64,000 nucleotides of DNA from Balanoglossus misakiensis (Eukaryota; Animalia; Hemichordata): positions 2,082,760-2,146,759 of the forward strand of contig CM082576.2 of the NCBI GenBank assembly GCA_040954595.2, in the 5' to 3' direction. A program made the translations under genes and the position numbers. Within the stretch, counting starts at the first letter, position 1. Each line of letters starts with the position of its first letter. Shown one piece after another: positions 4,602 to 35,300 of this stretch. Below the pieces are notes generated by a model that was not told the DNA's origin, ran no database searches, and saw nothing but the letters and a program-made list of their open reading frames with translations.

Positions 4602-4767
4602 ATGGCTGGTTGTGTTTCAGAACATGCAAATGGTGACGCGACAAATAGTTGGCATGGCAAAGTGGTGATAGCTGACTACATTGAAGATGACAAACCAGTC
4701 ATATCAGGGCTGAATTTTAAGGCTGCTTCACTTGAGAAGCTATTGACCATCTGTGTGGATTCCTTTG
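4602..4767 (+). CDS. RASGRP: RasGRP coding exon 1 (MAGCVSE...[16 protein letters not shown])
   Basis: ATG in attATGg context with in-frame stops upstream; donor G|gtaagt at 4768. An alternative acceptor tgtgtttcag at 4620 is possible. Confidence 0.75.
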
Positions 4768-7700
4768 GTAAGTAGTCATGATTTGTATGCTCAAAATGTG
4801 GTTAACTTCTCTTTAATTTCCTATGCATGTATTTATACAAACATTATGCACATACCTACATGTATCACATACATATGTACCTACATGATGTATATGACAT
4901 ACATATACATGAATGTACAGTACACAGCAGACAGACAAATTGTTCTTTTGATGGATTATTTACATTGTTCTGCTTATACTGAAATTTGAGTCATCAGAAC
5001 CATCACAGATCAACTCACACCCTGCACAATGACATATTATAACATGGAAACACCCCCACAACATAATTTCTAGTATTGACCAAAATTGTACATGTATTAT
5101 TGCTACGAGAAGTCCAGTAATTACCAGTACTGCTGCAGTTTGGCTGGTACATCCATGAGTGTACAAACACTCCTGGAAAGTAGCATGTTTGACCTCAAAA
5201 TCTCCTGGAATATCATTTGCAAAGCTCTGGGAAAGCCAACGGAATTTGGAATGTCTTTGAGCATAGGAATGGGGCATTAATGTCACTGAAACTTGATGAT
5301 CGAAATATGCAAATTTGTATGTCACTCACAACAAAATAAGAATAAAAGAGTTACAGTTGGCAATTTTTTGGCGACGCAACATACAACCACCTGTTAGATT
5401 TCACATCATGGATCTGCACCACTACATGTAATATTACTTGTGCAGTGTCTATCAATAATCCCACCATAGTGTATTTGAAGAAAATTAAAACAAGCCCTTG
5501 CACTTGGTATTTACACAGTTGAAATTTAATTTTAAGTCAATTAACCAGCTCCCGTTAACTGTTAAAAACAGATGACATTAAAAGGTTAAAAAAGTATATG
5601 TCCCTGGAAATACTCTATTGTGGCAGTCCATTGAAATTCTGTGAGAAAACCAAATGGAAACGATAAATACAGCCAGATGGACTTTGACTCATTACACTCT
5701 GAAATTACTCTGTCAATGTTGATATTTAGCTGAACACTGTGTTACTTCGTTTTGCGTACATTGACAAATTCTAGGTCTTGTGTGCAAATCAACAAATTCT
5801 AGGTCAAAACCTGAAATTAAAGTTCATTTTTCTCAAATAGGAGTGCAATTATCAAGTGACCACACAAGAACAAACACATTGGAAAAGGTTTTATGACCAA
5901 TAATTTTCTCCAACTACTTGAGGAATTCAAACAAGGTTTAATGGGAAGGAAAAAGGCACTTTAGTCTGTTTGCGTTGCTCTCTCACTCAAACTAAACAGT
6001 GCGTCTGTTTTGGGCGCTAATTTTTTTTTATTCCATCAGTAGTCCTTTCACTGCATTTAAAAATAGCTTTGGCTCCACCCAGTTATCCAGGGTCTCTTAT
6101 CTTGGGATGAACACTTGCAGTAGAGGAACCACACCTCCTGTTTTTCCCATCTTCCCAGATTTTCAGGGATCCTCATGAATAATTACAGTATACATGTAGA
6201 AATTTCATTGTAGCAGAGTTCAGGATTTTATTAATTGGTAATAAATAATTGCCCTGTGTGTTTTAATTATTATGATGGAGATGTGCCTGTTATGACACGC
6301 CAGATGGCACTACAAGCATGATTTGAATAAGAGCCAGAAGATGCAGATAGCACCTATACCTAATTGACCCTTGACCCCATCATTTTTTATCAGCTACGTG
6401 CACTTTCTGCACTGAATTTTACAATTTCACAATTTTTTATCCCTCCATCTTATTTTTCCTGTTGCTAATCATTTCAGTGCAGTATACCAGTACAATATGC
6501 ACATTGGCTTCAAGATTCTTTTTCAACTCTGAGTTTTATCACAATTTAGATGAAAAAATTTACTGAATATCGTTTTTTTGGCAGACAATGTATTCTGAGT
6601 TTTATCATGAATTACATGAAAGGCTAACTGAATATAGCATTCTTGCCACTGTCAGTGTTGTATAAATGAAAGCATCTGTGTGGTTGGTATTTTCGAAAAA
6701 AAGCAATAAGTCCTTTGAAATGACGTGAAGCGTCATACCCTTGCACGACCTTGACCCCAGTGCCGGTTGCCCTAGCAACAAACGTGTATCCTAGGCTTTT
6801 GAACATTTCATTTTTGGCTGAACAAAAGGTGATGCATTTGTTTCGACGTGAAAATTACGTTGTCTTCTTTTCCATTCCCTGTGTTCAACAAAAAGCGAGA
6901 AAGACAGTTTGTTTCCACTGCAAAAAAAAAAATTCACACACGCACTGTTGTATTGCCGCGTAGTTGAAAAGATCATATTATAAAACACCATTTGCGGCTC
7001 TATGACATCAATGCAAAACGGTATGACGTTACACGCCGTACGTATGTATACGGCACAAGCATTCTCTGTTTGTTTACCCTCATCAGATATTAAGAGATGA
7101 ATGGGATTTTCAACCTGACACGAAATACTTGCGTAAACGAAACTGATTAGTTGTGCACACCCATGTACAAAGAGGGGTTGGCCGTTCGATGTGGTCACCA
7201 GGAAATTAGAATATTTATAGTAATAATGCGGAATAAATGGAGAGTTACTGTCGACCAGAATTGAGTCATTTACATCATTTTTTTCCATACACTGTTTTGA
7301 ACTGTGTGTGATGTAAATTTATAAAATACACAAAAGGTTTGCGTGTTAATTACGTAGTACATAATTACATTTATACGTACAAACAAGAGAAAGGTGGGAA
7401 TTAAAGTAAAATGGATATTGAGATATTTGATTTGTAAAAAAAAGCGAAAGCCTACCCGTGTTTGTATATTTGTAATACATAGATATCTTTGTATAAATTT
7501 AAGAGCTAGCTAGCATGACAGTTCAAGATGCATTTCAGCTCTCAGTTTCTATAAAAGGGCAATTTTAAGTCTCATATTTGTAAGAGCTAGTGTGGCATTT
7601 CTTGATGTCTATTACAGCTCTCACATTCATACAAAGTCAATTTTCTGCCTCTGCATTTATGTATTATAAAGAGCAGAGTCACTCCACATAGCTCAGCCAG

Positions 7701-10700
7701 CCATTGGCAGTTCATGATACCCTTCCATTTCAGCTCACAAGTTCATGCAAGGTCATGAATTGCATGACAGTGAAACACTTTTAAGGTCACCTGCTGATAA
7801 TGCTCTTCAGCAGGACACAGCAGTCAGCTAGGCCTTGCAGGATCTCATTTATAACCAGTACTCATCTGCGTTCACTTTAATTGTATCTTCTAGATGTCAA
7901 TGGAGACCTAGTGGAGAAATCACCGCTTCCCAGGGTATTTTTTCTCATGCACAAATGGTTCATCTCATCAGAGGAGCTGGCTACAAAATTTCTGGACCTA
8001 TATCCTTTATTTAACAACTACTTCAACAGATTTCAAATTATGGATGAAGTAGATGTGAGAAAGAAAAAAAAAGATCTCTAAACAGTAGTTACTGTATGTG
8101 CCTAGTAAGACCGGCAATCACGCATACTTAATTTTGAAAGTGCAACTGCTATTATTTGGTGTTAATTTGTCGATCAGATCTCGACATGTGGATTGTACAT
8201 TAATTGCAAAGCATATGGTCATGGTGCATCTTATAAGTGAGGTGCAGAGTGACTTTGTCATGAGAGTGTGGAAAATACTGCAATCAGCCCCATTCAGATC
8301 ACTAGATTCCATTTGCCCTAAAATTATTCAACTTAATGCAATGACGTCAAAGCCTGATATGTTTGTGTAGTTACAATGCCCGTAACAGCATAACAAGTCA
8401 GAGTTATAAGTGTATGAGCTCAGGTAGCAATTTAATATACTGAGGATGTCCTGTTGTTTCTGACTTGTCAATTTGTCTGTGTACTCTCTACAAGTTGTGC
8501 TATTTTTAGCCTAGATTTTTTAAGGTGACATAAAATAACCACAAATACGCATCCTTCACTTCAAACTCAGGCCACTTTGTTTCAGTTTAGTATTCGCAAA
8601 AAGATGGCATTTATGCATATTCATGATATATGTAAAACCTACGAAGATCACCATTCATTCGATGCCATCTTGTTCTGGTGAATACTAAACCGTAATTATG
8701 TCCACTTGACTGACTTAATTACAAAACAAAAACAGCAATTCTTCTTTGGCAGTGTTTTGTGACTTTACAAAAAAAAATGAAACAAAGCTTTTTATCTTCA
8801 ATGTCTGAAGATTAATGTTTATGTAGCTCTGTATCCTTAACTCTGACGCACATATAAAAATTGTCCAGGCATCTTGTGTAAGACGTCATGTAGCCATAAA
8901 ATAGACGATCCAAGCTGCAAGCGTTATCAATTCCGATGCCGTGTGTGCCAAGCAGTCAGGTAAGGGATCTCTTCAACTAGGGCTCTATTAAAAGTAATTA
9001 TATGTATCCAGGTTGTAAACTACTTCTTTGCTTATCTATTCAGAGCATGCAAGGACGGTTACCAGAAATATGGAGAGAAAAAAAAAGATGAAATGACACG
9101 TACGATTTGACCTCTCTGTATTCCCCATACAAGGTTATACTGGAATATTGCATTTAAATGTCATGCCTTGTTTGAGATCAAGGGAGAAAAAAACAAGGTT
9201 TCTTCCATTTTGTCTTTCATATCAAATCAGTTTTTGGTGAACTACAGTGGTCGTGTGTCAGGGGAGAAATTGTGTCTCTATCATTCTGTAACTGTTTACG
9301 TGTGCACAAAACAAATTTTAAATAAAAAATGTCCATCACTACTCTCTCTCTCTGACTCTCTCGCTCATGAATATGTGAATTAATCCTGTCATGTTGACAC
9401 TATAGTCTTTAGAAATTCTTCAAGTTTATAGAATTTCTGTGGATGACTATAGATGTCTGGGTTAGACTCTTTTTCTGATGAATTCTATAGAATATCAAAA
9501 TCTATAGAATGCTATAGAACTCAGTAGAGCATCCCTTGCATTTTTGTGTTCTTGCGGCACTGTGAATATCATGGATAACTGCTAATTCCTCCATAACTGA
9601 AAGTCATAAAATGCACATTAAAAAATACACATAAATCCAACTTGTCAAGGCAAGAGAATATGGATTATTTTTTACTATCAACAAGGGTTTCTTAAAAAAA
9701 ATTAATGCCAAGTATATAGGTCACAGAAGTTTCTGTGATGTATAATGAAAATTTCTGAAAATAACAAAAATGAAGTTAATAGCTTGGCACTCTCCAAATT
9801 CATAATGTAAGATTTTATTTCAAGTGAATCCAATATTTTGTTTGTTGTTTATTCCTCATCACAGATACTGGATCAGCCACTTTCCGGTGCATTTCGATTT
9901 GGATAAGAGTCTGTCCACTGTGGTTTGGACGTTACAGAGACATATCCAAGATGATGGGTTCACCAGACTCAAAAATGTGGTGGATATATCCAGTGTGTAA
10001 GTATCAAAATGTTTAATTGTGATCAAAACTCATATTGTATTGACTTAATGGTGCTGTTCGCATGCAAGTTCAAAATAAGAATTAAGTAAGATGCATTTTC
10101 TTCTTACATATGACAAAAGGTGATCACAGTCTCTTGTCAAAGTATTGCATCATCTTAATTAAACATTGCCATGTGACTGCCTTCCGATGCAAGATTCCTG
10201 CAATGAATAAATGTTTCTGTTGTAGCTGTAGCGTGTGAAATGACTAAAAAAATTGATGTGGGTGCGTAAAAGGTTTTATGTCCGAAAGAAATTATGTTCT
10301 GTGAAATAATAAAATAATGGTGGCACAAAGTGGGTCAAAGTTACAAGGATAATGTTTCTACCATGATACCAGCTTTAGTTATGGAAGCTGTAAAAGACTT
10401 GGAATGAGAGCATCAGCCTAATACACCAATTATACTTTGTTATTCCAGATTTCCAGAAATATGTATTGTTAAATGTAGTGATTATTTAAGATATAAAAAG
10501 TCCAAACAGGACACAGTCATTGGCGAGCTTGTCCTGGTGACGCAGGATTTCTTCCTGGAAGTCATAAAACAAAGAAACAGAAAAATTAGCGGAAAAGTCT
10601 TTTTTTCTTAGTCTATAAATTGTGCGTGTGAGCTTGGCAATAATCGATTTATTATCATTTTTATGAAGTTTAAAACTGTTTTTACAGTTGTTCTGTTTTG

Positions 10701-13700
10701 AGAAAAGGGTGCGCTGATAATAAATGCTGTCATAAATACGACATGTAAAAATATTCGGAGAAAAGTTCACATTTCTCCCAACAGTCACACGCAGGTTTGC
10801 CATGTATGCATGCAATATGAGATGATGTTCAAATCTCCAGACACTGGAAACTGTGACCTTTAATATACAACAAGTTAGCACTCAAGAGTTGATACGATTC
10901 GTATTTTCTAATGGATTCTCATCCATTTGGTGGTTGTTGTCATCATCGTACATCATGGGTGGCTTTTGTCTTCCAGGAAAATTAAGCTATACTAAGAAGA
11001 CTTGGCTTTCATGACTTATTTATAGCCAGTATGGTCTAAAAAGATCACCTCATGTGCTATAAATACATGTCAGCCACATTTAAGCGCTCTCAAATTAGAT
11101 AGGTTTCTTGATGCAAAAAGCTACTGACTACTTTTTCTTGAAGAGTCAGTCGATCGAGTTACCGGCTATTTATAGACAACCTTGTGTCTGAAGCACTTAC
11201 CTGGATGCTTGTTAGTGTTTCCTCCAGCGAAGGAGACAATGGCTTGTTTTCAATTTCATTACTGTCCAGGCCTTCCGTTTCCCGAAATACTATGTTGGAG
11301 GTAGACACATGCAACTTTGAAGCCCTGTTATCAAAACATGAGAAAGAAGACCTACATGCAGTGTAGAATATACATGTATCTTGATTAGGTCCCGACCTTT
11401 TGTGGAAACAAGAACAGCTTGTGATTGACTCCTTTACCCAGGTGGTCTTGAGGAAAACATTTTATTCCATCACTTGGTATCAAGATATCCTTGTTGGGAC
11501 AGCGTTTTGGAGCATAAATAATGATATATATTTTTTTGGTCTGTTGTGTTGTACATCTTGTTAGTCAGGGTCTGGCCATCTGTACTCTGGATGGGAATAG
11601 CTTTATTCCTCAGGGAGAGCGGTATATTACTGGGTAATTCCTTTTCTGTGCTAGTCCTGCCCAGCTGAAGGCTCCCCCCCTCCCCCATCTTTTAATCAGT
11701 GTCAACTTCCTGATCCCTTTTTGTCTCCTGAGGAAATGCTTTTCTCCTCTTCATGCCATCCAGTGTAGAGCCTGCCAATGTTCCACCAGCAAGGGTTGTG
11801 TCAAAATTTCTTTTTGACTGTGTATATATAAATCTTGTATTTACCCACTCATAGTGTGCATGATGAATGAAAAAAGATCCTCATGTCTCATCCCCAAATT
11901 CTCATACATTCATTGTAGTATATATCCTCCCCATCCCACTAATAATGAGAAGTTTTGATGGTGATGCTTTTGAAGAAATTGCCTGCAGAACTGAGAAAAG
12001 TAAAACATTTAATGTTTCCTTAAAAAATACCAGTTAACACCTCATCATTCCTTTTTACTGGAGTTCATTTTATTTGAATGTATAGCTGTGGTCGTGGGCA
12101 TTTTCACACTACATTTGTCAGATTTGAGGTTATACAGGCCTCTTGTTTGTGTATTACTGGTACATTACTTCTGCATGTATAGCAGCTTAGAAAACTGTGA
12201 GTGACTTTTGATCAGCAGAAAGTCTATCATGTACTGACTGTGGTGAACGGGACTGTCAGAGAAATTGTTACTGATTTTTCTAGGATGAGCTTACTGCAGT
12301 TTTTCCACTCCAGTTGGATCATGAGCACAAAACTGAAGTTAAAACACAAAAAGCATCTAGTTTTTACTAATAAATTGGACAGTTTGAAACAAGCTTGGAT
12401 ATGAAAGATGGTTATACCAAAAATAGAGGTTTTAGGTTTGAAAAATGGGTACAAGGCAAAGAATGGTACCGGTATAACTATAGTCCCAGTAAGGGGCTGT
12501 GACTTATAATATTAGTTATGATGTCCCAGATAATGCCACCATTGGACCAACAATCTTTCAGGCCTCACAGTCTGAGATAGTAGTCAAATGTCAACTTTTT
12601 TGTTTACTTTTCTTCACAGACCTTCATATGACTGGATGCGACATATATCTGTGCGCAACAGCTCAATTCGTCACAATCGTAAAGTTTCATTGGTCTTCAA
12701 CCACCTTGAACCCAATGAGCTTGCGGATCATTTAACATTCCTGGAATACAAAATATTCAGAAGGCTGACAGTAAGTTTTACATTGATCATATATTTGTGA
12801 AAAAAGTGATGTACGTACGTACGTATGAATGGACATGAAAGAGAAGAGGCTTATACATATATGCATTGTATTATTTAAAACCCCTTGAGCTACCACATTA
12901 GATGCATAGTTGTAAATTCATCTTCCCATAGGAGCGTATATACATGTATGCCATAGTGCTAAAAATTAGAATGAATCATGGGATAGCTCAGTCCTATGTT
13001 TTGGAAAGGTGATGGACCTTTTGAAATCCTTGCCCTTTTCAAAAAAAGGTTGACTTATTCACATGACATGTACCTTATCGTTTCTATATAATGCCAATTT
13101 CTCATTTCCTAGGTTCCTTCCAGGGAAAATAATTAATGGCTCTGCAATTGTTGAACCATTTAGAATTTCCACATCTGACGTCTCCTATAGAACAAAACAG
13201 CCATTTTTCATGTCAATGAAATCAAGTAGAATAGGCATCAATTGAAATTAGCTCAATTTGATTTTGACCAGTTTTCCAAACATCCATTTTTGAGCGCTAT
13301 GGTGAAGAAGGAGAATGAAACAAAACAAAATGGCTACTTTTTGTGTAACTTTAATATTTAATTCATTTTGAATGACATTAGAAAAGGACGTTAACTTTCG
13401 TGCTGGTGTTATTTTTCAAAATATAATTCAAAACACACACATATATATAAAACAATTCTGGTTTTCAGTAGGTTAGCTGGGCTGTAATAAAAATCTGACA
13501 CTTTGAAGCTCTCTGTAACTGTGGCATACCAGGGGCTTTCACATTGTCTTTGAAGAGAAATATGGCTTTGAAAAAAATGGTGCAGGAAACAACATTGACC
13601 AAATCAGAGTACCTTGGTAGAAAGTTAATGTTTACCAGTCTGGGTGCACTGTTGCTCAGGAAATAAGATGTGCACATACCAGTGAAATATGTACGAACTA

Positions 13701-16700
13701 TCCATTAGCCTTTGGATGACACCCCCACGTGTGTCCCAGAAATCATACAAGTGGTCAGACGATATGTGACCTTTTGTTGTTAATCACACATTCTCTGACA
13801 TTTTTTGTTTCCTCTTCTTCACAGTTTTCAGATTTCAAAAGCTATGCATCTCATACCCAACTTAAAGACAATCCCAAATTGGAACGCTCGATAGCGTTGT
13901 TCAACGGATTGTCCCAATGGATTCAGTGTATGGTGCTCAGTCGGACTACGCCAAAACAACGAGCTGAAGTTGTCGTGAAGTTTGTCGATGTGGCCAGAGT
14001 GAGTATATGTGGAATGTTGCTCGCGTTCTGGGGAGTTCCCACTACATGAGAGAGATCTGTAGACAGGGATGTCGGATTTACATGCTAAAACAGCGGGGGA
14101 TTCAGTTATGAAGTGGTGTGGAGATACACATGAATCATGCGAATGGAATGTATTTGTCCTGCAGTTGTTATCAAATGATTAAGTACAATCACAAGCATCA
14201 TGAAATTAAAATTTTCTGTAAAACAGTTGAGAAGTTTCACCCAAATAATTATAACAGTTCTACATATTCAGTGCGCAGTAGCAGATATGATATATGCTAT
14301 CTTTTGGGAATGATTTCGGGAACTGTCTATTTCAGAGGCTACGAACATTACAGAATTTCAACACCTTAATGGCAGTAGTTGGTGGTCTAACACACAGTGC
14401 ACTTGCCAGACTCGGCAAAACAAATGGCCATCTTTCATCTGAGATGCAGAAGGTGGGTGTTAGCTCATTGCACTCTGTACATTTGACATCTTCCCTACAA
14501 CAACAACAACAACAACAACAGAATATAAGACCTTGTCCTTAAAGGCACTCATCTGTTGGAATTGCACCTGTCTATTTTAATAAGGACAGATACTTTCAAA
14601 CAAATGCCTATTGAATTGATTGCATTCTAGTGAGATATCTGTTTATGGGCCAGCTGGAATGAAAATATAGGGTGACAATTATGCCATTACTGAATAGGAA
14701 TTCATTCCATGTCTACTTCTGGCTCCATCATGAATCCAATTATACTTTCTCAACAATTTGCCTAACCTGATTGTTTGTTTGTTTGTTTGTTTGTTTGTTT
14801 GTTTGTTTGTTTGTTTGTGGGTGTTTCCTTCCATCAGACATTGAGTGAAATGACTGAACTACTGTCATCTGGTGGAAACTTTTGCAATTATCGAAAGGCA
14901 CTTCAAGAAAGCAAGGGATTCAAAATCCCCATCCTGTAAGTATAAGCTCTCAATGTCAGGTGCCTTAAACGCTTTCGTACCCCCTCCCCCTCCCCTCCCC
15001 ACTCTCTTTTCTTATGTGGGCCCCCAATTGTACCAGTGAAATGAAATGAATATGATGGAAGTGGACCAAATCGTGGTGGTTAGAGGGGTACAGCATTTAT
15101 TAAAAATGTTCAGGACATGTATTTATGACATGTACATGTAGTTCAGACAATGCTTAAGGTCATTTAATCCTTGAAAGTATTTATAGCTTGACAATATTGG
15201 GCTTCTTTTAGGGTTTGGGGAGAAATAAAACTAAATATTACATGCTGTTTTCTGTTTTGATATACGGGTATGTTAAATATCATTCGATCTTTCTCATTGA
15301 ATGTATTTTCTTCTCCCTTTTTTTGTTCATGCTGACTTTTCCATGCGACATGTCAGAGGTAAGTTTTGTGTCTTTATATTTGCATAGACCAATACACCCC
15401 AACATTTGTTCTCTTTTCACTGAAATTCTATCGTTCCTTGCTGCCTCACAATATTATGCCAAATTCAGAATAGTCTATTCAAGTTCAAATTAACCTAGAA
15501 AACTGACTTCAGTGTAAGTTTTGTAGGTTACAGTACCCGCGTTGATGTTGCATGTATAAAAAGATACAGCAGTCGCAGCGAGGAACGATGTATATCATAC
15601 TTTTATGATATCGGGGCTTATTTGTAGACTACATGAGTCGTGACTTGTGATAACCAGTGCCATCTGGCCCATTTCTATTAAGTATTATATTTCCATACTC
15701 ATCTGTGAGAGCGGCAGATAGAATTGCGCCAAATATAGAACCAAGGAAATCACACTCTACTTTGTTCCTGTCAGTCAGTTTATCTCAACAAGGGTGTCCT
15801 AGATATTACCAGGACCCTTTTTTATCAATTTCTGCGATGGGATTAAAAACTCAGCTGATTTCTGTTCTTAGACCAAGGAGGGCCTACCATTCTAATCTGG
15901 GTAATGCTGGCCTGACTTTTTAGAAATGTATAGTTGTCCGTATAGCCTGGGGATAAGGGAAGGTGTTTATTTTCTGTAAACCTGTGAAGTTATAACTCAT
16001 ATTAAAGATGCATGTATATATCAGAACTGCACAAATCTCGGTTAAAGACTTTATAATGTGATTCAGTTGACACACTTTTGATGACGGAAATGATGTGTTG
16101 ACTACATTCTCATAAACCATTCTACACAGGAGTTCATCTGAAAGATCTCATCACAATCCACACGGCATTTCCGGATAAGTTAGACAACGACCTGATCAAC
16201 TTCCGTAAGATGGCTCAGTTGTCAATGACGATAGCCGAGCTCACCCAGCTTCAACATGCTACTCCACCAATAGAAGCCAACATGGATCTTGTCAATATGT
16301 TGAAGGTAAGGCAACGCATGGTAATATACGTCCCACCATACCATTCTAGCTAGCACGCAAAGTGCTCACCAGACTTGCATCCGGCAGTCACGTGGTAGCG
16401 TGTCAGTAATTAAGCTCCATCGGCATGACCCAGTGATGGACAGAGACATGCATTCAGTGATGTTTTGTTTCTGGTAGACTTCATTACTGATCAATCAAGT
16501 CACACGTGGCATGCTGGAATGTCACAGGCCAACCGTCACCATGTCACTACATCACACACACAGCAGGACCATTTGTACCGGTACATAACAAGACATGATG
16601 TACGGTATATACGCATGCAGTTGACCTGTTCTCTGAACATCTCTATTTGCTTGTTCTCTCTTGTACGAGCAGTGTTTCAGCTGTGGGGTTGTCAGTGTAC

Positions 16701-19700
16701 CGGTACATGAAAACCAAATTACGGGGGATGAATGAAAAAAATCTGTTCAGCTGTATAAGGAGGTGATGTGAAAGGCATTTATCATGATTATCTGCACAAG
16801 ATTGGTCCAGGGTTGGGGTTGGGGAAGAAAACAAATTATATCAATCAGAAAAAAATGGTTCTGGAGAACGTTGCATTAGAAGAACAGGCTATTTTCACCA
16901 CTTCCATTTCACGTGATTCCAGGAATTGTTATTTGGTTTGTGTCCTTTGAAAAAAGGAGCTTGAACCCGAAGTCATGCACACTCGAGCCTGCATGCTTAC
17001 TTCATGTTGAACCCAATGAACCAGACAGGTTTAAAAATGTAAATGCATACCCAGTAATTATTGTGTGTAAAATGTAAGCACACTGAACACAGGCTAAATG
17101 AGCCCCAAAAGGCCACAGAAATTCGCCTGTTTTGGAAGAGGATCGGTGCACTTTGTTAATTGCCGTATAATCAGCCGATCAATCAATCAAGTCAGTATGC
17201 TGTTTTTTGAGACATCATAATGATTTGCAATATCATAATTTTGCAATTGTGACGTACGTCACGTACCGTACGTATCCTTTTCATGTTTTTGTAACATACC
17301 CGAATACAACATGTACAACATTTGCCTGTGAGATGTTCACTTTTCCTGAGGCATCCTTACATCTACATGATCTTTACCATCACATCAGATTTTACCAAAG
17401 TGGGCATAATTTGGTTAAGAAATTAGTGTTGGTTATATGTTTATTTCTACAGTTTGTCAAAGACAAAAATTAAGGAGGTTAGACTGAAAAAAGGAAAAAA
17501 ACCTCAGTCGATTGTTCATAACTTGTTCATTATACTGACATACAAATCTTATTTCTGTTGTCCTTCTAGGCTTCCCTTGATCTACACTACACAGAGGATG
17601 AAATATACGAGTTGTCAATTGCCAGGGAACCTAGAACGTCTACAAGTTCTGTGAGTATACACCTGTGTAATTGTTGTGATATTCCAACAAAAAACTGTCA
17701 TCTTGCTTGGTGTGTTTCAACCATGTGTCAGTACATGATTGCCCTCAGACCCCCCCCCCCCCCATCCCCATCTCCTGCATGTTAACCCTTCCCATCATAC
17801 ATCACTGGTCACCTCACTACCAAAATGCCTCCTGCCACCAATCTCTGTAAATGAGGCCATATGATGTCTGGGCTCAACAAGGCTGGGGTGATACAGTTTT
17901 GATCTGGTTATGAAACTGACATTTGATATAATAAACCACCATTCAGTACAGATGATACACTTTTCACGATGTTGCAAAGTGCAGGAAACCAATATTCATA
18001 TCAATTGTAATACCTTTATTGATGATGTAATAATTACCATTAGGTAATGAGCCATAAATTTGGAAGAGAGAATTGTATTGTCAAATTTATTGTCTGTTTT
18101 GTACAGTGGGTGTTGATGGTGTAGTGATTTACTCTCATAGTAATTATGCCAACTTTGGTTGATTGCATCGTTAATGCAATTATCCAGAAACTGATAACCT
18201 TTGATGTGTCATATTGTCTCTATAATTGTAATCTTATTGTTTCTCAGTGAAATTTTCATCTTGCTTACTGTTTCAAGTTTCCTCTAATGATTATGATAAG
18301 GATTTTCTGAAAGTTTGCCTCAGAATTATTTCAAACAAACTGCGTGCACTCAGCACAGATGTCATATATCTCATGATTTTACAAAGTACAAGTAGCCATT
18401 ATTCATATATGTTGTATTATCTTTATTGATCACATAATATTACACCACAAATTGAGGATAATGTATACTTGTTAGACACACCGCCACTAAGCAATTTTAG
18501 AGTCTCTTAGAAGTTACATGTCAAAAACGGTCTGGCATCAGAAAAATGATGATACACATCAGAAGATGGAGTTGCTAATTTCAGCTCAGATTCCACACTG
18601 CATATAAAATAGCCAGTAAATGCCAACATCGATTGATTGCATCATTAATGCAATTATCCAGAAATTGATAAAACTTCTTAGGTGTGTCACTGTGTCTATA
18701 ATTGTAATCTCATTGTGTTGATGTAATTGTCATTTTATTTTCTGTTTTAAGTTACCCTAACGACCGGATTACGACAAGAATTTGCCGAGAGTTTTTATAA
18801 TATGAAAACTAGGCCAAATCATAAACCTTATATCTACACCCAAGTCCCACAATTAAGAGTACTTGGTAGTGTACTCATCACACTAAAATTGTTCCATATT
18901 TGAGATTGAAAGAACTCTTCCCAGATTGAACCAGCCAATCATGTAGTAAGCGTACTGAAAAAAATTGTGTGAGTCGATTGTCATGGTTCCACAGCGAATG
19001 ATTTTATTGAGTGGAGTAAAACATTGTTTCTGCAATTGAATGTTTAGTAAAGCTAAAGACATGTGTATTGATTTTAGAAGGGGCAAATGTCCTCCAGAGC
19101 TAAGAATTATAGATGGCTTAGAAATAGAATTCAAATTGGCTCATGGCGTGTTTGATTCCTATGTTGACAGCCTCCGACACCAACCAAGCCGGGAGTTTTT
19201 GCAGACTGGGCATCGGGGGTGAACACACCACCAGATCCAGAAACCATCAACAAGCATGTTCATGCTATGGTGGAGGTAAGTCATTCACAGTCAGTTCAAA
19301 AATATTGGCAGGGGTGTTACAGATTAACAGCCAGTATAAACCCAACATTCTTGCTCGGTATAAGCGTTTTATATGCGGGTATGTGCAACAACCATTGTTG
19401 CAAGTGATTTTGCAAGTCAGGACTTCAGTTTTCAACAATAACAGTGCTGGCTGTATACACATACATGTATGCAATGCATTTGGTAACCTTTCATCCTGCA
19501 ATTTCAAAGTCAAACATGAAACTTCAGTTAATGCACAGAACAAGAAAATACTGGAATTAAAAACAGGCATTTAATAGACACATCCTGTTCTGGGAAATGT
19601 TAAAACTGAAATGGCCACCATTTGCTTTTGTCAGACTTTCAAGTTCATCAGCTGAGGTGGAGTATGTACCTGTACGTGCGTCGACATGTAAAATATTACT

Positions 19701-22700
19701 CTTGTCATTGCAGGCAGTATTCAAGAACTATGATCATGATCGAGATGGTTTCATCTCGCAGGAAGAGTTTGAAGCGATTGCCGGAAATTTCCCATTCATG
19801 GACTCCTTCTGTGTTCTGGATGCAGACAAGTAAGTCAGTCTCACTCTTCTTGTTCATTTTGCCAACAGACTTTGAGAATCAGGTTAATCAGTAAATCTCA
19901 AGATTCTTCTTCAAATATGTAAGACCACGAAAAACAAAGCTTTTATGCAGATTTAAAACTCTACCTGAAAAATTTTAAAGTGCATTCAGGATTTTTTTAT
20001 CCATCATCTGATGAGAACACGACATCCCATTTACATGATGAGGTACCCACCACTCCTTGTTTAAAGTGTAAATAACATGATATATAGGATGAGAGAATCA
20101 ATGAGAAGGAAAGTGCTTTGCTCAAGGACACAACATTGTGGCCATGTCCTGGTCTCGAACCCACAATTCTCCAATGAGAGTCAGTGGCCTTGTCTGGGTC
20201 TTGAACCCACAATCGATAGTATGGTTGTTATACCCTTGCAATGTACCTTCAAAGTCAGCAGAAAATATACAAGACAGACACCACTTTGGGGGAGTGAGAT
20301 AAAATTTAAGAATCTTTGAATCTCAAGAAATTTTGCATTTGACAGTTCAACATTAATCAAAATATAACGTGAGAACTATTTCAAAATTGATTTGATCCCA
20401 GCTAGGCTCTGTGGTATTTGTTTGAAATATGATTGTACAAGAATAAATAAAACACTCAACCAGCAGACAGAGAAACACTTGAAAATCTAACTGGTAAATA
20501 AAACCATTCATCATGTTATTATATTTTTTTGCTCTATAAATGCACTTATTGTGTTATTGCTCTAATTTGAAAAAAAATGAGGTGTTGTTTTGCAAGAGTA
20601 ATAGCTCTTTCGTAATTTAAGTGTAAGGACAAGAGTTGGACCCTGGGAGAAAAGCTCCGCCCATCATTAAAATTGGATGAGAACATGAATTGATGTCCAT
20701 GGCCTGCTGTGTGTAGGTGGCTGTCAGCGACTGTACCATCTTTTCCCCGATGGGGTTGTTATTCAAATACAAAGAATTTACCCCATTAGGGGGCATTTGT
20801 TCAGATTAAGTCAGTTCAAAGTACAAGCGTATTCAGCCCTTCAGATTAACAAGATGATTGATGGCGAATTTTTTTCTGCAGCGCCATATTAGAGCGGGTC
20901 TTGCGTCGTCTTCATCATTTTTCCATTTTCCACAGAGATGGGATGATAAGCAAATCGGAGATGAAGACATATTTTATCCGAGCCAATTACCACGCATTGA
21001 GGAGCAGCTTCAAGCATGATTTCCATGAGCACACCTACTTCAAGCCCACGTTTTGTGTCCACTGCACGGGGTTGCTATGGGGACTGATCAAGCAAGGAGT
21101 CAAATGCAAAACGTGCAGCATCAATTCCCATAAGCACTGCAAGGACCTGGTCGTCATGGAGTGCCGATCAAAAACAAGTTCCTCTCACAGCCAATCAAAC
21201 GGCTCGGTTGATGGAGGTAGGATTCATTATCCAGTTGTCATATTCGCCAGATGGGCGCCCAGGGAAATCATAGTCCCTGCGACATTGAGAAAGAAAAAAA
21301 ATAGGATACTAGACATGTTTCTGTAATGAGGGCAGAGACACATTTCTGTTTGACAAAAAGAAAGAGCAGAAACGTGACTCAACTCTTTGTGAACTCTTCA
21401 GTTAGCTTTGTGCTTACCCTCCAGGTTAGTTTCCCCTTTGTTTGGGAGCTGCATCTTTGATGACGTCTCTGCGATGCTTCTGTTTGTCATCACACGCTGT
21501 CTCCATGGTGATGGGGAACAGCACCAAAACCAAAATATGTTTACATCTTAAGTGTACTCACTGGAACCTTTCACTTTAAGAAAGAAGGAAACATCACAGG
21601 GTTTCTATGTTTTTTAATTAAAGAAATAATATCAATCACATAATTGTCAACAAGACCAGGGTATTGATATATTTTCACAAATTTTGCTGCGGTGGAATTA
21701 ATCGTCATTTTTTTAATTTGGCCACTTTGGAACTACCCATGCTCAAGATTTGGAAGTACAGTGTATTTATTAATTATTTTCAACTAATTATTGGGTCACT
21801 GTACGAGATTTGAACATTGAAAGGTGACTGAAGTAGCTAGCGGGGTGTGATCACTGTAACGAATCAGGAGACAGGCTGGCTGTTGTGTACATGTACGTGT
21901 TGTTGCTGCAGTTGAATATGTCAGTAAGAGAAAACTGGGCCACCATGATAGCATAGAAGTGTCAAGGTCAAATGAAAAATCTTCAATGCCAAGAAGAGCA
22001 AGGACAATTTGATGTGTTTGCAGCGTTCAGGGGTAGGGGGTGGGGAGAGGTTTCATGGTACTTGGACATTTTAATGCAAACTTTGTTCCTCACTCCCTGC
22101 AGGCAGGAGAGACTGCATGTGTTTTAGTCATAGACTGATGTTGCAGACAATGGAAACATTGCTTAACATGTGTGTGTTGTGTGCATGTAATATGGAACGC
22201 GATCTGATCATGTGAGGATCGAGGGCGCACTCAAAAAGACTGATATCTTTACTTATGCAGTTGTTGAACCACGATTTTTGGAGAGGGGTTTTGTCTGCTG
22301 ACTTCCTTATTATTGTAATGATCACGAGAGGCAATTACTAAAAGCTCGGCTAAAATTATAACTTCTTGATTTTTTGCAGTCACGGCAAAGGACGTGACAA
22401 TGGACAGGAAGCGGAAAATGTCCATCCGGCAGAAACACACGCAAAGCAGCGCCGGCAACCAAGCATCAAGGCAGACCAGGGTGTCGGATACGCAGGATGA
22501 GAATAAAAAGGACAGTAGTGGCAACAGTGTGAGTGAAGAAGATGATGATATAGATAACTACGGAGAATCATATGAAGAAGAAACCGATATGCATGAAAGG
22601 CTTGTTAGAGCCGAACAGGTGAGGAATGAAAAACTGAAGAAGTGCAAAAACAGTTTGGCGTTTACATTGAATAGATGTAAACTGTGAGATTATAATGCTT

Positions 22701-24187
22701 TTCAACTTCTTGGAAGTCACGATATGATTGTTTTTGTCATATACATGTACGACTGTGTTGTGTGAGGAAACATTAATTTTCACCAGCAACCACATATAAT
22801 GCAGTTCCTCCTGAGTGACTCTTGTTGGACATCCATTTTGGGCGTCCTAATTAGTGCATGTATTTTTACAATTGTGTTTATTAAGCCAAACAAGCATCAT
22901 TTGTAGTCATTTCCATTCAAAGTAAAATTACCCCAAAAAATGTCACGATGCAGTGAAGTCCTTGTTATAAATAAAATTTAGACAAATATTGTGTTTATGC
23001 AGGTTTCGGCCTGAAATAATTGGGGTTGCCTATTGGTCAGATTCTACTGCATGATCACAGCAAGGACAAACATGCAAGGGGCATATGTTTTTCACCACTA
23101 AAATCAGCCTTCACCTACTGGACATACGGTACATGGATGCATGCGAAGGAACATATGTAGCATGCAACATGACAGCGACAGATGTTTTTCACTGTTTAAA
23201 AAATCAGCCTTCGCCTTCCTGGTACATGGTAGACATACATGCACGTGTGTACATATATACCAGGAAGGTGAAGGCTGATTTAGCATGCAGCTATATAACA
23301 CACATAGAAAAGAAACATAAAGAGACATGGATATTTCTCAACACTGTTTTACAATCTGAGCCTTCACTTTCCGGAGAGTTTGTGGTCTTTTGTCAAGACT
23401 GTTGGTTATAATTAACATGTGCAAATATTACATATTCTGTGACACACAAACAATGACAGGTATTCCCAGATTTTTTGTGATCACAAAATAAATTGTATTG
23501 TGTGGGCTTATCTGTTGTTCATTATGACTATGGGTGTTGCAAGCCATAGAAAAGTCCATCTGTCATTACGCCTAAAGTCCATTCCTAAAGTGGCCGACCC
23601 AAGCATTTATGTATTTAACATACAGGGAAAGTTTGGAGGATCATGACAATCCAGAAATGTAGATGGAATTGAAGAATTAATAGTTTCACAGTGACTTTAT
23701 CTGAAAAGTCAGTGAAATGACAAACGTGGGTAAAATTCATGTGGGTGTGTTTTTATGAGTAGCTGCTGTCACTGACTGTATGTGTTGAAAGCAGGTCATT
23801 TGTTCTACCCACTCATTGTGCACCTTGTACGTTTTCTGTTTTTTGGAAATTCCTCATCTTCATCAGCACTACAAATTAATGCAGTAAACGTCGGGAGAGA
23901 ATAGAGAAATAATTGACAAATGGCAGATCACACGGACTGTATATGTATTCCCTGAATTTTTTAATGATCACCAAAGAAAAACTTCAGTGTTTTCTTTCTT
24001 GTCTCGTTCATTTCAGGCAAGAGATTTATTGTCAACAGAAAACGAACGCCTGCAAAAACAGCTACATGCAGCTCAAGAGAAAATCAACACATTGCAGAGC
24101 CACATAGGAGTGATTCGTCAGCACACGATAACGTTTATTCTGGACCAGATGGACACTCTCCATCTGCAGAAGGACTCTGAGGTTTGA
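4602..24187 (+). CDS. RASGRP: RAS guanyl-releasing protein (RasGRP family), full spliced CDS, 740 aa: join(4602-4767,7894-7999,8852-8959,9865-9996,12620-12770,13825-13998,14336-14452,14838-14935,15357-15358,16130-16305,17570-17650,19171-19275,19714-19829,20936-21216,22380-22618,24017-24187)
   Basis: Hand-spliced exons total 2223 nt in one open frame. Motifs: REM ([41 protein letters not shown]), CDC25 GEF ([79 protein letters not shown]), two EF hands, a C1 domain and a C-terminal coiled coil. The start codon is the least certain part. Confidence 0.95.
6766..6779. promoter_or_regulatory. RFX X-box-like palindrome in RasGRP intron 1
   Basis: GTTGCCCTAGCAAC versus consensus GTTGCCATGGCAAC; lies in a CpG-rich patch with TGACGT half-sites at 6721 and 7024. 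Confidence 0.45.
7894..7999 (+). CDS. RASGRP: RasGRP exon 2 (REM domain)
   Basis: ttctag acceptor; [36 protein letters not shown]; ends at the U12 donor ATATCCTTT. Confidence 0.92.
8000..8851 (+). other. U12-type (minor spliceosome) AT-AC intron of RasGRP
   Basis: 5' end ATATCCTTT (8000-8008), branch site TCCTTAAC (8834-8841), terminal AC (8850-8851). Joining gives in-frame DL-YKNC...VRYWI. Confidence 0.95.
8852..8959 (+). CDS. RASGRP: RasGRP exon 3 (Cys-rich REM segment)
   Basis: [36 protein letters not shown]; donor AG|gtaagg. Confidence 0.9.
9865..9996 (+). CDS. RASGRP: RasGRP exon 4
   Basis: cacag acceptor; [16 protein letters not shown]...VVDISSV; donor gtaagt. Confidence 0.92.
12620..12770 (+). 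CDS. RASGRP: RasGRP exon 5 (start of CDC25 GEF domain)
   Basis: [13 protein letters not shown]...[27 protein letters not shown]; AG/GT boundaries. Confidence 0.95.
13825..13998 (+). CDS. RASGRP: RasGRP exon 6
   Basis: FSDFKSYA...[43 protein letters not shown]; donor gtgagt. Confidence 0.95.
14336..14452 (+). CDS. RASGRP: RasGRP exon 7
   Basis: [39 protein letters not shown]; donor gtgggt. Confidence 0.95.
14771..14818 (+). repeat. (GTTT)n microsatellite, about 12 units
   Basis: Perfect tetranucleotide run between a cctaac branch-like motif (14761) and the acceptor at 14837. Confidence 0.95.
14838..14935 (+). CDS. RASGRP: RasGRP exon 8
   Basis: [32 protein letters not shown](L); ends in phase 2 at CT|gtaagt. 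Confidence 0.95.
15357..15358 (+). CDS. RASGRP: RasGRP 2-nt microexon (AG)
   Basis: Polypyrimidine tract, gctgac branch-like site, then tgtcag|AG|gtaagt. It supplies exactly the 2 nt needed to join CT (14935) to GA GTT CAT (16130) as CTA GGA GTT CAT = L-G-V-H. Confidence 0.85.
16130..16305 (+). CDS. RASGRP: RasGRP exon 10
   Basis: (G)[31 protein letters not shown]...[10 protein letters not shown]; acag acceptor, gtaagg donor. Confidence 0.93.
17570..17650 (+). CDS. RASGRP: RasGRP exon 11
   Basis: [27 protein letters not shown]; donor gtgagt. Confidence 0.93.
18146..18795 (+). repeat. Diverged direct repeat, about 170 bp x2 (18146-18316 and 18620-18795)
   Basis: Shared atgccaac..ttgattgcatc(g/a)ttaatgcaattatccagaaa(c/t)tgataa..gtgtca..tctataattgtaatct.attgt. 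Confidence 0.85.
18940..19132 (+). mobile_element. Degenerate non-LTR retrotransposon (Rex1/Babar or CR1/L2-like) reverse-transcriptase C-terminal fragment
   Basis: Translation [21 protein letters not shown] / +1 frameshift near 19045 / [28 protein letters not shown] resembles the F..WC....LQLNV.KTK.M.IDFRR.....I.G..IE motif of these RTs. Confidence 0.75.
19171..19275 (+). CDS. RASGRP: RasGRP exon 12
   Basis: [35 protein letters not shown]; donor gtaagt. Confidence 0.93.
19714..19829 (+). CDS. RASGRP: RasGRP exon 13 (EF hand 1 and start of EF hand 2)
   Basis: [38 protein letters not shown](K). Confidence 0.95.
20111..20214 (-). mobile_element. tRNA-derived SINE remnant
   Basis: Minus strand reads B-box-like GGTTCGAGACC (duplicated as GGTTCAAGACCC), then TGTGTCCTTGAGCAAAGCACTT; shares gctcaaggacacaa with 3069-3082. 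Confidence 0.55.
20936..21216 (+). CDS. RASGRP: RasGRP exon 14 (end of EF hand 2 and C1 domain)
   Basis: [13 protein letters not shown]...[50 protein letters not shown] has the canonical His/Cys spacing of a C1 domain. Confidence 0.96.
22380..22618 (+). CDS. RASGRP: RasGRP exon 15 (low-complexity basic then acidic linker)
   Basis: tttttgcag acceptor, phase 1 matches the previous exon; ...[15 protein letters not shown]|gtgagg. Confidence 0.85.
23099..23375. repeat. Degenerate repeat cluster containing a 24-bp inverted repeat (23201-23224 / 23258-23281)
   Basis: aaatcagccttc(a/g)cct motif in direct orientation at 23101, 23201 and about 23355, and inverted at 23258-23281 (1 mismatch). Confidence 0.75.
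24017..24187 (+). CDS. RASGRP: RasGRP terminal exon (coiled coil, ends KDSEV*)
   Basis: tttcag acceptor; [29 protein letters not shown]...DSEV TGA. Confidence 0.88.
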   Translation, partial: ARDLLSTENERLQKQLHAAQEKINTLQSHIGVIRQHTITFILDQMDTLHLQKDSEV

Positions 24188-31417: not shown

Positions 31418-32396
31418 TCACTTTTGGTCAGTTTTCTTTTGGAAAAACTGATCCAATGTACATGTACTACTGTTCGATGGTTTTGATTTCTTTTTCAATG
31501 GTTGGCCAACATTCTTCCCACTGACAGGGTGCTTCTTGCCCACAGCAGCCGCTGGGGGCGCTATATCACTTGCACCCATCAGGGGCTGTGCTGCTGTCGA
31601 GTTTATCTGTGCCTGCACATCCATGGCAAAGTGGAAGTCTAGATGCTCTGGCAAGTCCCACACTGAGATCATCTTGCTGCACTTGTCGCACATGACTACA
31701 TCAGTGTCACGCGGGACATCCTCAGCGCGGTCATTCTGCGTACCCTGACACTGTGGCTGCTGTTCAGATTCTGCTCCAACACCTTTGTTGATGTTTTGAT
31801 CAGTTCCAGTGTCCCTGACCTGAGAAGTACAGGGCAAATTTGATGCAGGATTTGATTTGAAATTACTGCTGCCTTTGAAATCAATCATGTTAACATCGTG
31901 TTCAGAGTCTCTGCTTTCGGAGACGAAAACAACTTTGTCTTCCGCATCTTTCTGTCGACTCGCCGAATCAACAAATAATTTCTCATCTTGCAGAGTCACT
32001 TGGGACTTGTCTTTGGTTGCGAAAAATCCCATTCTTCCATCGCTGCTATTACTGCAAATTGCTATTTTATCATCAGTGGAGTTGTTTGACCTGGCATCAG
32101 TACAACTACTCGTGGTGTTTTCTTTTACACTTGTTACATAGTTCTCTCTGACCTCCACCAAACGCTTCTTCTGAGACGGTCCAAAAAACGAATCAATGCT
32201 GCTCCTCTTCTTTCCCTTTCCTGTTTTGACACCGGCACTGCCCCTCCTGGATTGCGATGTACCTGCTGGATGATCTGAGTCCGAGCTCCCGGCGGCATCA
32301 CTTGTAAAGAAATTGCTAATGCTCGCTGAAGATGTACTCTCGGCTGGGTCATTGAACTTTGATGCTGCCAGATTCAGGGTCAGAATTGGTGGTGAC
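31418..32396 (-). CDS. POLH: POLH terminal exon (FF motifs, UBZ, NLS, PIP)
   Basis: SPPILTLNLAASKF...SISNFF...SIDSFF...CDKCSKMISVWDLPEHLDFHFA...KKKSK...TLDQFFQKKTDQK*. Confidence 0.95.
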
Positions 32397-35300
32397 CTGG
32401 GGATTGACACATGAAAAATTAAACTTAAGAACTATAATTTGTTACGGCAAGACAGATAAACATATTTCAGTGCATCTTTATGGCCAATGGCATTTTGACA
32501 AAAGTTTTCTTGTGTTAACAGTAGCAGTATGTTTGGCTTACCAAGCTTCTTGGTGAATTCCTGCTGCATTGAAGCACTGCATCACAGCCAGTGCATTATT
32601 GGCAACTGTCTCAGCACTTGTGTTGTGTAGCTTGAATGACCTGGACATACTCTGGGGTGGAGTTCCAACAGTCCTGATATTCACAGTCATCAGTCTGGCA
32701 GTGCGTTTGTTCTGTGAGACGAAGAAAGACAACAATTTCTGGTTGTGCTGTTTAAAAGTAATTTGTATACTTGTAAAGCAAATACTGGTACTTCAGATAA
32801 GGGTTGAAAAAAAAAAGCAGGCTGACATGCATGAGTTTGATAAAAATAATTGATAAATGCATTTCCCTCAGTCAATTACTGCAATTGTTGGGCAGGGCAC
32901 TGTCTGTCTGCATAAATCTGTCCTAAACTATAAATCTGGCCGAAACTATAAAATTGCTTGAAACTGTAAGAAAACCTCGCTGCCACATCATACTCACAGT
33001 GTCTAATTCCCTCTGAAGTCTTTCTTCGATTTCCGAAGCCAGCTGAAGTAACCAATGTTTTACCTGTAGAGGGCAGTATAGCACATGACTGAGAAGAAGT
33101 GACCATAGGCTTTTACACAAGTGGCAGATTGACAGAAATGGCCTGGTGCAAGTCAGTGTCTGGCACCATTGCTTTTTTTGTAAAGTTCATCATTTTGATT
33201 GAGTACATAGCATACAAACCCACTGTGTCAAAGCACTCTGATACATGTAGTTGGAGAGACACTACTGCCAATTTTAGAAGTGTATGTTGTACAAACAACT
33301 TCAGCTACACCAGTCAAACTATGACTGTTCAAACACTTTACCTGCTGTTTTGTGGCCAATGCATTTTTTCCAGGAAAGTTTTTGCCACATCCCACTGACT
33401 TGGACAATTGCCTTGGTCTTACTGGTTCGTGTTCAATGCCTCGACCAACCTCATACAGCCAGGCCCTGTCAAATAGCAGATAAATGAAAATAATAATTAC
33501 AATATTTACAATATGACTACATGTATATCACTTTTCACATCACTTGCCTTTCATCACATGTTTCCAAACTACCATGTTTTGTACCCATGGTATGCAAATG
33601 CAAGAATTTACTTTGAATTGATGAGAATACCTGTCATGTTCTTACCCCAATTTGTCTCCAAGTTGTGACTGCAGATGATTCAGTGTGGCTTTTGTGATGT
33701 CCGACATGTACTGCATCCCCAACTCATCTTGTAACTGCTGACCCAGCTTGCCTCCAAAGTGACGTCTATCACAGCAGTCAGGGAAAATGGAATTTTAAAG
33801 AAATTGCACCAATGAGACTATACTAGTTTAGAGTATGCATGCATTGGGTAACAGCTCTCAAAACCCCTTGGCACTGTCTCTGCAGATATAAATTTCAAAG
33901 CAAATACCAACGACATTTTGATTTGTAAAAGTAATACCTGGTACCCCTACTTACACTTTTCTGATGGGCATAGTTTGGTAGATTTTTTCAACTGATCTGT
34001 GTGGTAACACTGTCTGTTGGTTGGGTTTGTGAAGTCCACAGGCCAATTTGGCGAGCATCTGGAACAAAAATAAAGGGTTTAAAATTCCACTATTGGTGGT
34101 GCAAACATTAACTGGAAAAACTGTAGAATTTTCCAGAAAAAATATAAACAGAAATGAAATGTTCAGTTCTAGATTCTATAATATTCAGTCTTTCAATCAA
34201 AACACATTCTTGTAGAGGTTCCCAGATCAGGATGGCTTAAAATTCTGTTTGAAACTGGGTGTGTTTGCCATCATAGGATCTTAAAATCCATGATCAATTA
34301 CTCAGAACATTCCAGCAGTCATTATAGTTAGAATGTTAAGACTTATGTGAATGTTCAGTACCTTATTATACGCCACCCCAGCTGAGCAACGGAAACCCGT
34401 CTCTTGGAATACTGCAGCTCTCATCTCCTCTGCTATCAAACCTCCCACGGCCAAGCGTTTGTCATCTGTGTTGCCATAGCTATCCAACCAGTGGAACAAT
34501 CCTGCCACCCTCTCATCTGAAAATAAAACGAGAAATGGAACACAATCTATAAAGACACATGAAAGAGGATTATATGTATTTGTGTTGGAGACACTGACTA
34601 CCACTATTGCTTCAACACCGCATTTCAGACACTTTTCTACGGTAAAGTGGGACCAGCTCTGAGCTGGAGGGGTAAATGGGGGTGAAAGGTTTAAACATGC
34701 AAATCTATTGTACCCTGAACACTTTCATTTTTCTGGCCACCATTCTTATCACCGATTCTCCAATCCGCAACATGTGTGTTTGGTAACATGTCGGCAGATA
34801 CTCTCTCGTTTCCCAGTTCTTCCATTTTTCTGTGCACTTCATCCGTGAGATCAATATAAGCCTCATCCACACTGGCTTTCTCCACACTTTTACTAAACTT
34901 GCACAGGACGTCAATAACCTCTGCTCCTGCTTCTCGGTATCTGGGAAAAAAGGGTAAGGGTTCTGGAATTTAAAGAGTGGGTGCCGTCAAGTCTGCGATT
35001 GGGGGTATGGGTCCCATACAACACAGTTGCCAGCAAATCAAATATATTTAACATGAATTGGTTGGCAGAGCCTCCCTGAACAACGGGGACAATTCTGATG
35101 GTGTTTGATACAAGAATATGTATCAATCTCACTGATCAACAGGTGTATGTAAACTTAAAAGGCAAAGTTTGTAATACCTTGTAAGGTCTGCTTTGCCTCT
35201 GTTTTCTGGCACTCTCACCAGTGCTATATCTGGGCATATTTCTTTGGCTTCATCTCCTCTCATGCCCCCGCGTGTAACTCCACGTGCTCTAGCTTCATAT

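Follow-up and report, generated by a model that had tools for sequence, protein, structure and literature searches.

A predicted two-nucleotide coding exon at the start of the catalytic hairpin of a hemichordate RasGRP

The window analyzed here is the whole 64,000-nucleotide stretch of the enteropneust hemichordate Balanoglossus misakiensis (GenBank assembly GCA_040954595.2, contig CM082576.2, positions 2,082,760 to 2,146,759 of the forward strand), and the evidence comprises its sequence, homologous proteins and animal DNA within metagenome contigs. On the plus strand, at 4621..24184, it holds a RasGRP gene with REM, CDC25/RasGEF, EF-hand and C1 domains, delineated by tblastn, Pfam and splice sites. 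Fifteen ordinary coding exons were mapped in addition to the microexon described below, with the first coding exon or exons (residues 1–46) lying outside the map. Proteins of Ptychodera flava and Glandiceps talaboti were compared with the gene by tblastn, identity to the ortholog P0002 being mostly 80–100% per exon and the Glandiceps protein being the more distant from the window gene; the domain set was called by running Pfam on P0002, whose exons map to the window. The exon at 16129–16305 matches structures of human RasGRP1, 2 and 4, and its nearest protein is from Ptychodera flava (95% identity), followed by Saccoglossus (86%).

The part of the gene encoding the REM domain is interrupted by a U12-type AT-AC intron (8000..8851, plus strand), with the donor ATATCCTT, the branch site TCCTTAAC and an AC end. 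RASGRP genes are described as minor-intron genes (PMC6865273), with the minor intron of the family placed at Rasgrp3 intron 4 (PMC5224493), and the intron at 8000–8851 matches it; the window gene thus carries both the four domains and the minor intron by which the family is recognized. Like the junction considered below, this intron splits a Leu codon after two bases. Elsewhere in the window, pieces of a Y-family DNA polymerase lie on the minus strand (31421–32431 and 34305–34724), with a UBZ zinc finger and an IMS match too weak to reach the curated cut-off. An exon on the plus strand (46231–46638) encodes a Ras-association domain like those of RASSF8-10 and ASPP2, and so marks a second Ras-pathway gene near RasGRP.

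Within the catalytic domain, two neighboring exons on the plus strand do not fit together. The upstream exon (14838..14935, 98 nt) ends after the second base of a Leu codon, giving a phase-2 donor at 14935, and it faces a phase-1 acceptor at 16130, where the downstream exon (16130..16305, 176 nt) begins at the second base of a Gly codon. Joining the two directly leads to a TAA stop at 16176–78, 127 nt ahead of the next junction, as an earlier note on this DNA had reported and as re-reading the coordinates confirmed; outside this gap the gene is intact and conserved. The same note had proposed that the AG at 15357–58, in the context tgtcag-AG-gtaagt, is an exon of its own between introns of 421 and 771 nt, and these positions and lengths were reproduced. 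As a plus-strand exon (15357..15358), the AG would supply the third base of the Leu codon and the first base of the Gly codon in the motif IPILGVHLKD, and with it the conserved motif seen in relatives is restored: the 15 exons joined by coordinates together with the two bases give 679 codons without a stop, as against a first stop at codon 360 without them. The interval would thereby be divided into intron a (14936..15356, plus strand, 421 nt, GT-AG, U2 type), which is likely the older, and intron b (15359..16129, plus strand, 771 nt, GT-AG), whose donor outscores every other in the interval and which is likely the younger.

The site thus combines what is expected of a microexon, namely flanking phases that are incompatible without it, a motif that is restored with it, a canonical CAG acceptor and a strong GTAAGT donor. 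No in-frame AG acceptor that would rescue the 14935 donor was found in the interval. Alternative donors each delete 8–21 conserved residues, the other nine of ten internal-exon candidates turn the Gly into Arg or insert 6–63 residues, and NAGNAG acceptors and longer cryptic exons were likewise ruled out as a frame rescue. We consider it highly probable that a 2-nt exon at 15357–58 provides the bases that the frame lacks, with the major spliceosome removing the 421- and 771-nt introns successively. We found no published report of a 2-nt exon in RasGRP, and an entry for it may already exist in supplementary or database lists of microexons.

Splice sites were scored with small matrices, for which the same gene supplied 11 donors and 13 acceptors, and thresholds were set after the fact at the observed values. 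On this scale the donor at 15359 ranks first among the interval's 75 GT sites (11.3, versus 8.6 for the donor of the upstream exon), and the acceptor of the microexon is moderate (5.1, fifth among 62 AG sites); the true downstream acceptor scores only 2.5, so the acceptor model is crude. When the 1194-nt interval was shuffled 5000 times, the loose pattern YAGNGGTRAG arose in 63 shuffles, an AG-NG-GT site with an equally good donor in four, and a site matching both scores in none. Taken with the frame logic and the rank of the donor, this makes a genuine 2-nt exon, as the earlier note had argued, the best explanation of what the sequence contains. Across the whole window the loose pattern was observed four times against 1.33 expected, a count reached in 3 of 100 shuffles, and four of 89 AG-NG-GT sites passed relaxed thresholds. 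The pattern had no match in 11 control introns (23 kb), drawn from 11 of the 20 loci with both exons, in which no microexon is needed. Another AG-NG-GT site passing relaxed thresholds lies at 22031 (plus strand), inside the intron at 21217–22379, where the frame does not need it. At 15510–15524, 155 nt downstream of the microexon, there is also a look-alike of a 1-nt exon (cag-T-gtaagt), which shares 11 bases with the donor side of the microexon and whose donor (8.8) ranks second among those of the interval; the frame would not be mended by it, and it may be a decoy, a poison exon or the remnant of a duplication.

Upstream of the AG lies a polypyrimidine tract (15306..15328, plus strand), which stands some 28 nt back from the acceptor within a 132-nt AG-free zone. 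With 23 of 25 pyrimidines it is the richest tract among 15 acceptors, and the AG-free zone is the second longest of the 15. The earlier note had described both the tract and a branch-like site; both are present, with the differences that the tract begins at 15306 and not at about 15303, and that it lies upstream of the CTGAC branch-like site and not downstream of it. Candidate branch points of intron a are A15296, A15329 and A15335. Between tract and AG there are two TGC triplets (15330–32 and 15344–46), a position at which 12 of the other 14 acceptors have none and two have one. Microexons of the eMIC program are described as having a strong donor, a set-back pyrimidine tract and UGC before the AG (bioRxiv 10.1101/2024.09.17.613571; PMC10250204), and the RasGRP site shares with such SRRM3/4-dependent neural microexons the strong donor, the set-back tract and the UGC between tract and AG. 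The full layout is found at 15357–58, a weak support since TGC is a short motif. eMIC microexons are, however, mostly at least 3 nt long, frame-preserving and optional, whereas the RasGRP exon has 2 nt and is required for the frame, its skipping leading to a stop.

How this junction looks in other animals was read from outside loci. Among 58 of them, the acceptor is phase-2 in 54 (many near-identical, and hence not independent), two are intronless, one is unreadable, and one, L015, is phase-1. The donor sits at the window position in each of the 20 loci that possess an intron and whose upstream exon could be aligned as far as the Leu codon. Thus, the donor occupies the common position and it is the acceptor of the window that is shifted by two bases. 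L015 groups with echinoderms (support 88/83 in an exon tree of only 61 columns), and its 523 nt upstream, which end before the upstream exon is reached on the contig, contain no candidate for a 2-nt exon. Around its positions 260–298, a pyrimidine tract is directly followed by tag-gtatt, a site of zero-nucleotide type with a weak donor. Three other loci (L049, L056 and L058) have an extra intron within the downstream exon, near the NFRKM motif.

A second, indirect reading came from open reading frames that run from the intron into the exon, in which the residue preceding the Gly reports the phase, R or S being the phase-2 signature. R or S was found in 52 of 66 such ORFs (R in 42, 16 of them near-identical; S in 10), and T, P, A or L in 14. 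Both echinoderm-like ORFs have P or T, P0205 grouping with sea stars and P0190 with L015. The remaining 13 ORFs with T, P, A or L form one clade, most with GIQLKD and all with the phase-1 acceptor signature (P0244, P0257, P0258, P0266, P0295, P0314, P0316, P0318, P0280, P0322, P0327, P0328 and a further A-type ORF, P0300, which is outside the 66 and in the exon tree). At a guess this clade may be cnidarian; two protein-atlas searches with the GIQLKD variant returned only unrelated low scores. In mollusc-like read-through ORFs (P0014, P0015 and cluster members), the acceptor and the start of this exon occur as tandem repeats, and near introns can arise from duplications of this type. Further loci were also sought among prokaryote genomes and viral contigs, where none of the 64 and 89 pattern matches, respectively, was confirmed.

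Gene models and intron-free proteins complete the comparison. Two Saccoglossus models are faulty exactly at this junction; at one codon the first model has G where the second has C, which places a junction after the first base of that codon. Two models of the sea cucumber Apostichopus end at FKIPIL, which is phase-2 read-through. Among 22 named ambulacrarian gene models, 18 read through the motif intact, including a Holothuria model from outside RefSeq; this fits correct, transcript-based handling of a microexon and also fits an ordinary single junction in those species. The motif is also intact in all four intron-free, echinoderm-like Logan proteins, so the frame is restored in mRNA, by a route that such proteins do not report. 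Vertebrates have neither intron, and passage through the motif without an intron was seen in 44 short ORFs, mostly vertebrate-like, and in loci L052 and L054. Amphioxus contributed 14 intact models; the short model P0174, which starts inside the downstream exon, was left out of the counts given these 14.

Evolutionarily, we posit that the 2-nt exon is probably shared with echinoderms (starfish and kin). The second intron would have been gained at an AG-G proto-splice site, two bases into the exon and beside the older phase-2 intron, and this gain probably preceded the hemichordate–echinoderm split. Tandem duplication of AG-G proto-splice sites is a documented route of intron gain (PMC2891723), and the GT that follows the acceptor at the start of the L015 exon is what this route would need. 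The identity of the GIQLKD clade decides the age of the second intron, and should this clade prove an outgroup, the presence of two introns could be older still and have been followed by piecemeal loss. A younger history would have the microexon real in this window and not ancient, echinoderms and the GIQLKD clade each having a single intron, displaced by two bases through sliding, and enteropneusts alone keeping both. Near intron pairs are known to arise by intron sliding (PMC2891723), the 18 intact ambulacrarian models (the Holothuria model among them) would need no microexon, and none of the echinoderm sequences examined has both ends of the phase gap: the phase-2 donor is from a sea cucumber and the phase-1 acceptor from sea star-like sequence and L015, that is, from different species, with phases that are indirect where read from protein. 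Against sliding, the two Apostichopus models stop directly after FKIPIL, where a phase-2 donor is expected and not a slid one. We regard such a history as possible but rather doubtful, and it concerns age only, being compatible with the 2-nt exon here.

The eMIC-type layout of the acceptor also invites a bolder reading, in which the exon would date from the hemichordate–echinoderm ancestor or earlier and its inclusion would act as a cell-type on-switch for a catalytically intact RasGRP. An exon of that age implies two introns coexisting two bases apart for more than 500 million years. We hold the two parts of this reading, taken together, to be improbable.

The 2-nt exon itself is challenged by a single, non-canonical GT..AC intron spanning 14936–16127, which would leave the AG at 16128–29 exonic and the internal motif a bystander. 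The downstream acceptor reads ctacac-AG-GA, so that GT..AC splicing would give the same mRNA and protein as the microexon, whose two bases are identical to the AG of this acceptor. The earlier note had proposed the included versus skipped mRNA junction as a check; this is a trap, in that reads over the mature junction cannot separate the two and cannot prove the microexon. Such an intron would have some company: L015 likewise has AC preceding the AG, the window gene has a working AC-ending intron at 8000–8851, and non-canonical U12 ends are known in RASGRP4 (PMC1557818). However, the intron at 14936 has neither of the U12 signals of that other intron. The donor at 14936 reads GTAAGTAT and is not of the RTATCCTT type, as the one at 8000 is, and a branch site like TCCTTAAC, present before 8851, is absent before 16128. 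In phase-1 relatives the residue preceding the Gly is T, P, A or L, corresponding to AC, CC, GC or YT before the AG, with no conserved AC. Because U12 signals are missing and the bases before the AG vary as they do at ordinary acceptors, and with the strong internal site at 15357–59 left unexplained, we consider a GT..AC intron very unlikely. Conversion of a U12 to a U2 intron was ruled out as the origin of the junction, given that the minor intron of the family sits elsewhere (8000–8851) and that, at the old position, the introns of outside loci begin with GT and end with AG.

If the assembly were wrong at the acceptor or had captured a rare null allele there, through either a substitution at 16127 or a loss of two bases, the true gene would have a single phase-2 intron, and one base change would indeed make the junction resemble 54 of the 58 outside loci. 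Independent sources share the shifted acceptor, namely L015, P0205, P0190 and the Saccoglossus models, which makes such an error extremely unlikely, and under it the internal motif would have to be a chance event (0 to 63 of 5000 shuffles, depending on strictness). Just as hard to credit is a zero-nucleotide recursive splice site with the acceptor after 15358, or a frameshifted pseudogene, since, although the strong GT at 15359 is directly preceded by AG, this AG follows a G and scores –0.2 versus 5.1 for the CAG, a zero-nucleotide site would keep no bases in a gene that requires two and so would not mend the frame, the interval spans just 1.2 kb (1194 nt) where a long intron would be expected, and the intact, conserved remainder of the gene speaks against a pseudogene.

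Mechanistically, a 2-nt exon is too short for both of its splice sites to be bound together, so that one intron would be removed first, fusing the two bases to a normal exon, and either order of removal would yield a normal substrate for the second step. The earlier note had favored a recursive-like, upstream-first order in which the first splice regenerates the donor; the donor at 15359 is already present in the pre-mRNA, it is the stronger of the two (11.3 versus 8.6), and two bases are kept, so that the sequence lends this order no support. With two bases retained and a short interval, "recursive" applies only by analogy. Short microexons that combine a weak acceptor with UGC are reported to be spliced downstream-first more often (58% versus 26% for SRRM4-dependent ones; PMC10250204). 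Because the internal donor is the stronger and because short, weak-acceptor UGC microexons are more often spliced in this way, we lean modestly toward downstream-first removal here, with the donor at 15359 used first. The set-back tract would then direct splicing to the first of three tandem AGs, the sole CAG (5.1), and not to the two GAGs that follow (–0.2 for the next).

Structurally, alignment to 4L9M puts the split Gly opposite chain position 308, which would correspond to about residue 356 of RasGRP1, with the offset inferred from chain length. The helical hairpin of RasGRP1, which displaces the nucleotide from Ras, is given as residues 355–398 (PMC3728621). The Gly would thus stand at the start of the hairpin, and a protein made without the microexon would lack this element together with all that follows it. 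With the frame shifted at this point, transcripts that skip the microexon would likely decay through NMD, so that inclusion would be needed wherever RasGRP works.

The RasGRP exon probably adds to a rare class already known in humans, plants and fungi. RefSeq statistics tables give a 2-bp exon each for human SEPT7 (exon 2) and GRK6 (exon 16) (PMC5199132, PMC6549324), and like these the RasGRP case is an internal 2-base exon of an animal nuclear gene. Unlike them it lies in another gene and lineage, splits Leu-Gly at the start of a catalytic hairpin, does not occur in vertebrate RasGRPs, and is predicted from sequence. Exons of 1 nt are proven for plant APC11 and VPS55 (PMC4674806, PMC8831610) and reported for Fusarium CYP621A (PMC12940212), and 57 two-nt exons are given for Coprinopsis (PMC12230235). 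These share with the RasGRP exon their necessity for the frame, a GTRAGT donor, absence from annotation, placement in conserved motifs, and loss together with the flanking introns in some lineages; they differ in having RNA or mutagenesis support, where the RasGRP exon is a prediction. Calls of 1–2-nt microexons are said to have high false-positive rates, and standard tools to set aside calls below 3 nt (PMC7821500).

Two further systems offer partial parallels. Zero-nucleotide recursive splice sites, described in introns above 10 kb that are removed stepwise (PMC13149111), likewise place an acceptor and a strong donor almost adjacent and involve stepwise removal, whereas the RasGRP site keeps two coding bases within a 1.2-kb interval. 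Near intron pairs are old and new intron positions less than 32 nt apart, whose coexistence in one gene is held to be very unlikely (PMC2891723); the RasGRP introns resemble them in the closeness of an old and a new position and in the AG-G proto-splice context, and differ in that both would coexist, 2 nt apart.

If our interpretation is correct, the very short list of coding exons of 2 nt in animal nuclear genes would gain a member, one that comes from a non-vertebrate and lies where a catalytic element begins, and whose skipping destroys the protein. Such a microexon would also explain the broken public models of RasGRP in Saccoglossus and Apostichopus. Were it shared with echinoderms, near introns would coexist, contrary to the assumption behind the use of near intron pairs as a marker, and sea urchin and sea star data would make the order and fidelity of splicing at the lower size limit of exons testable.
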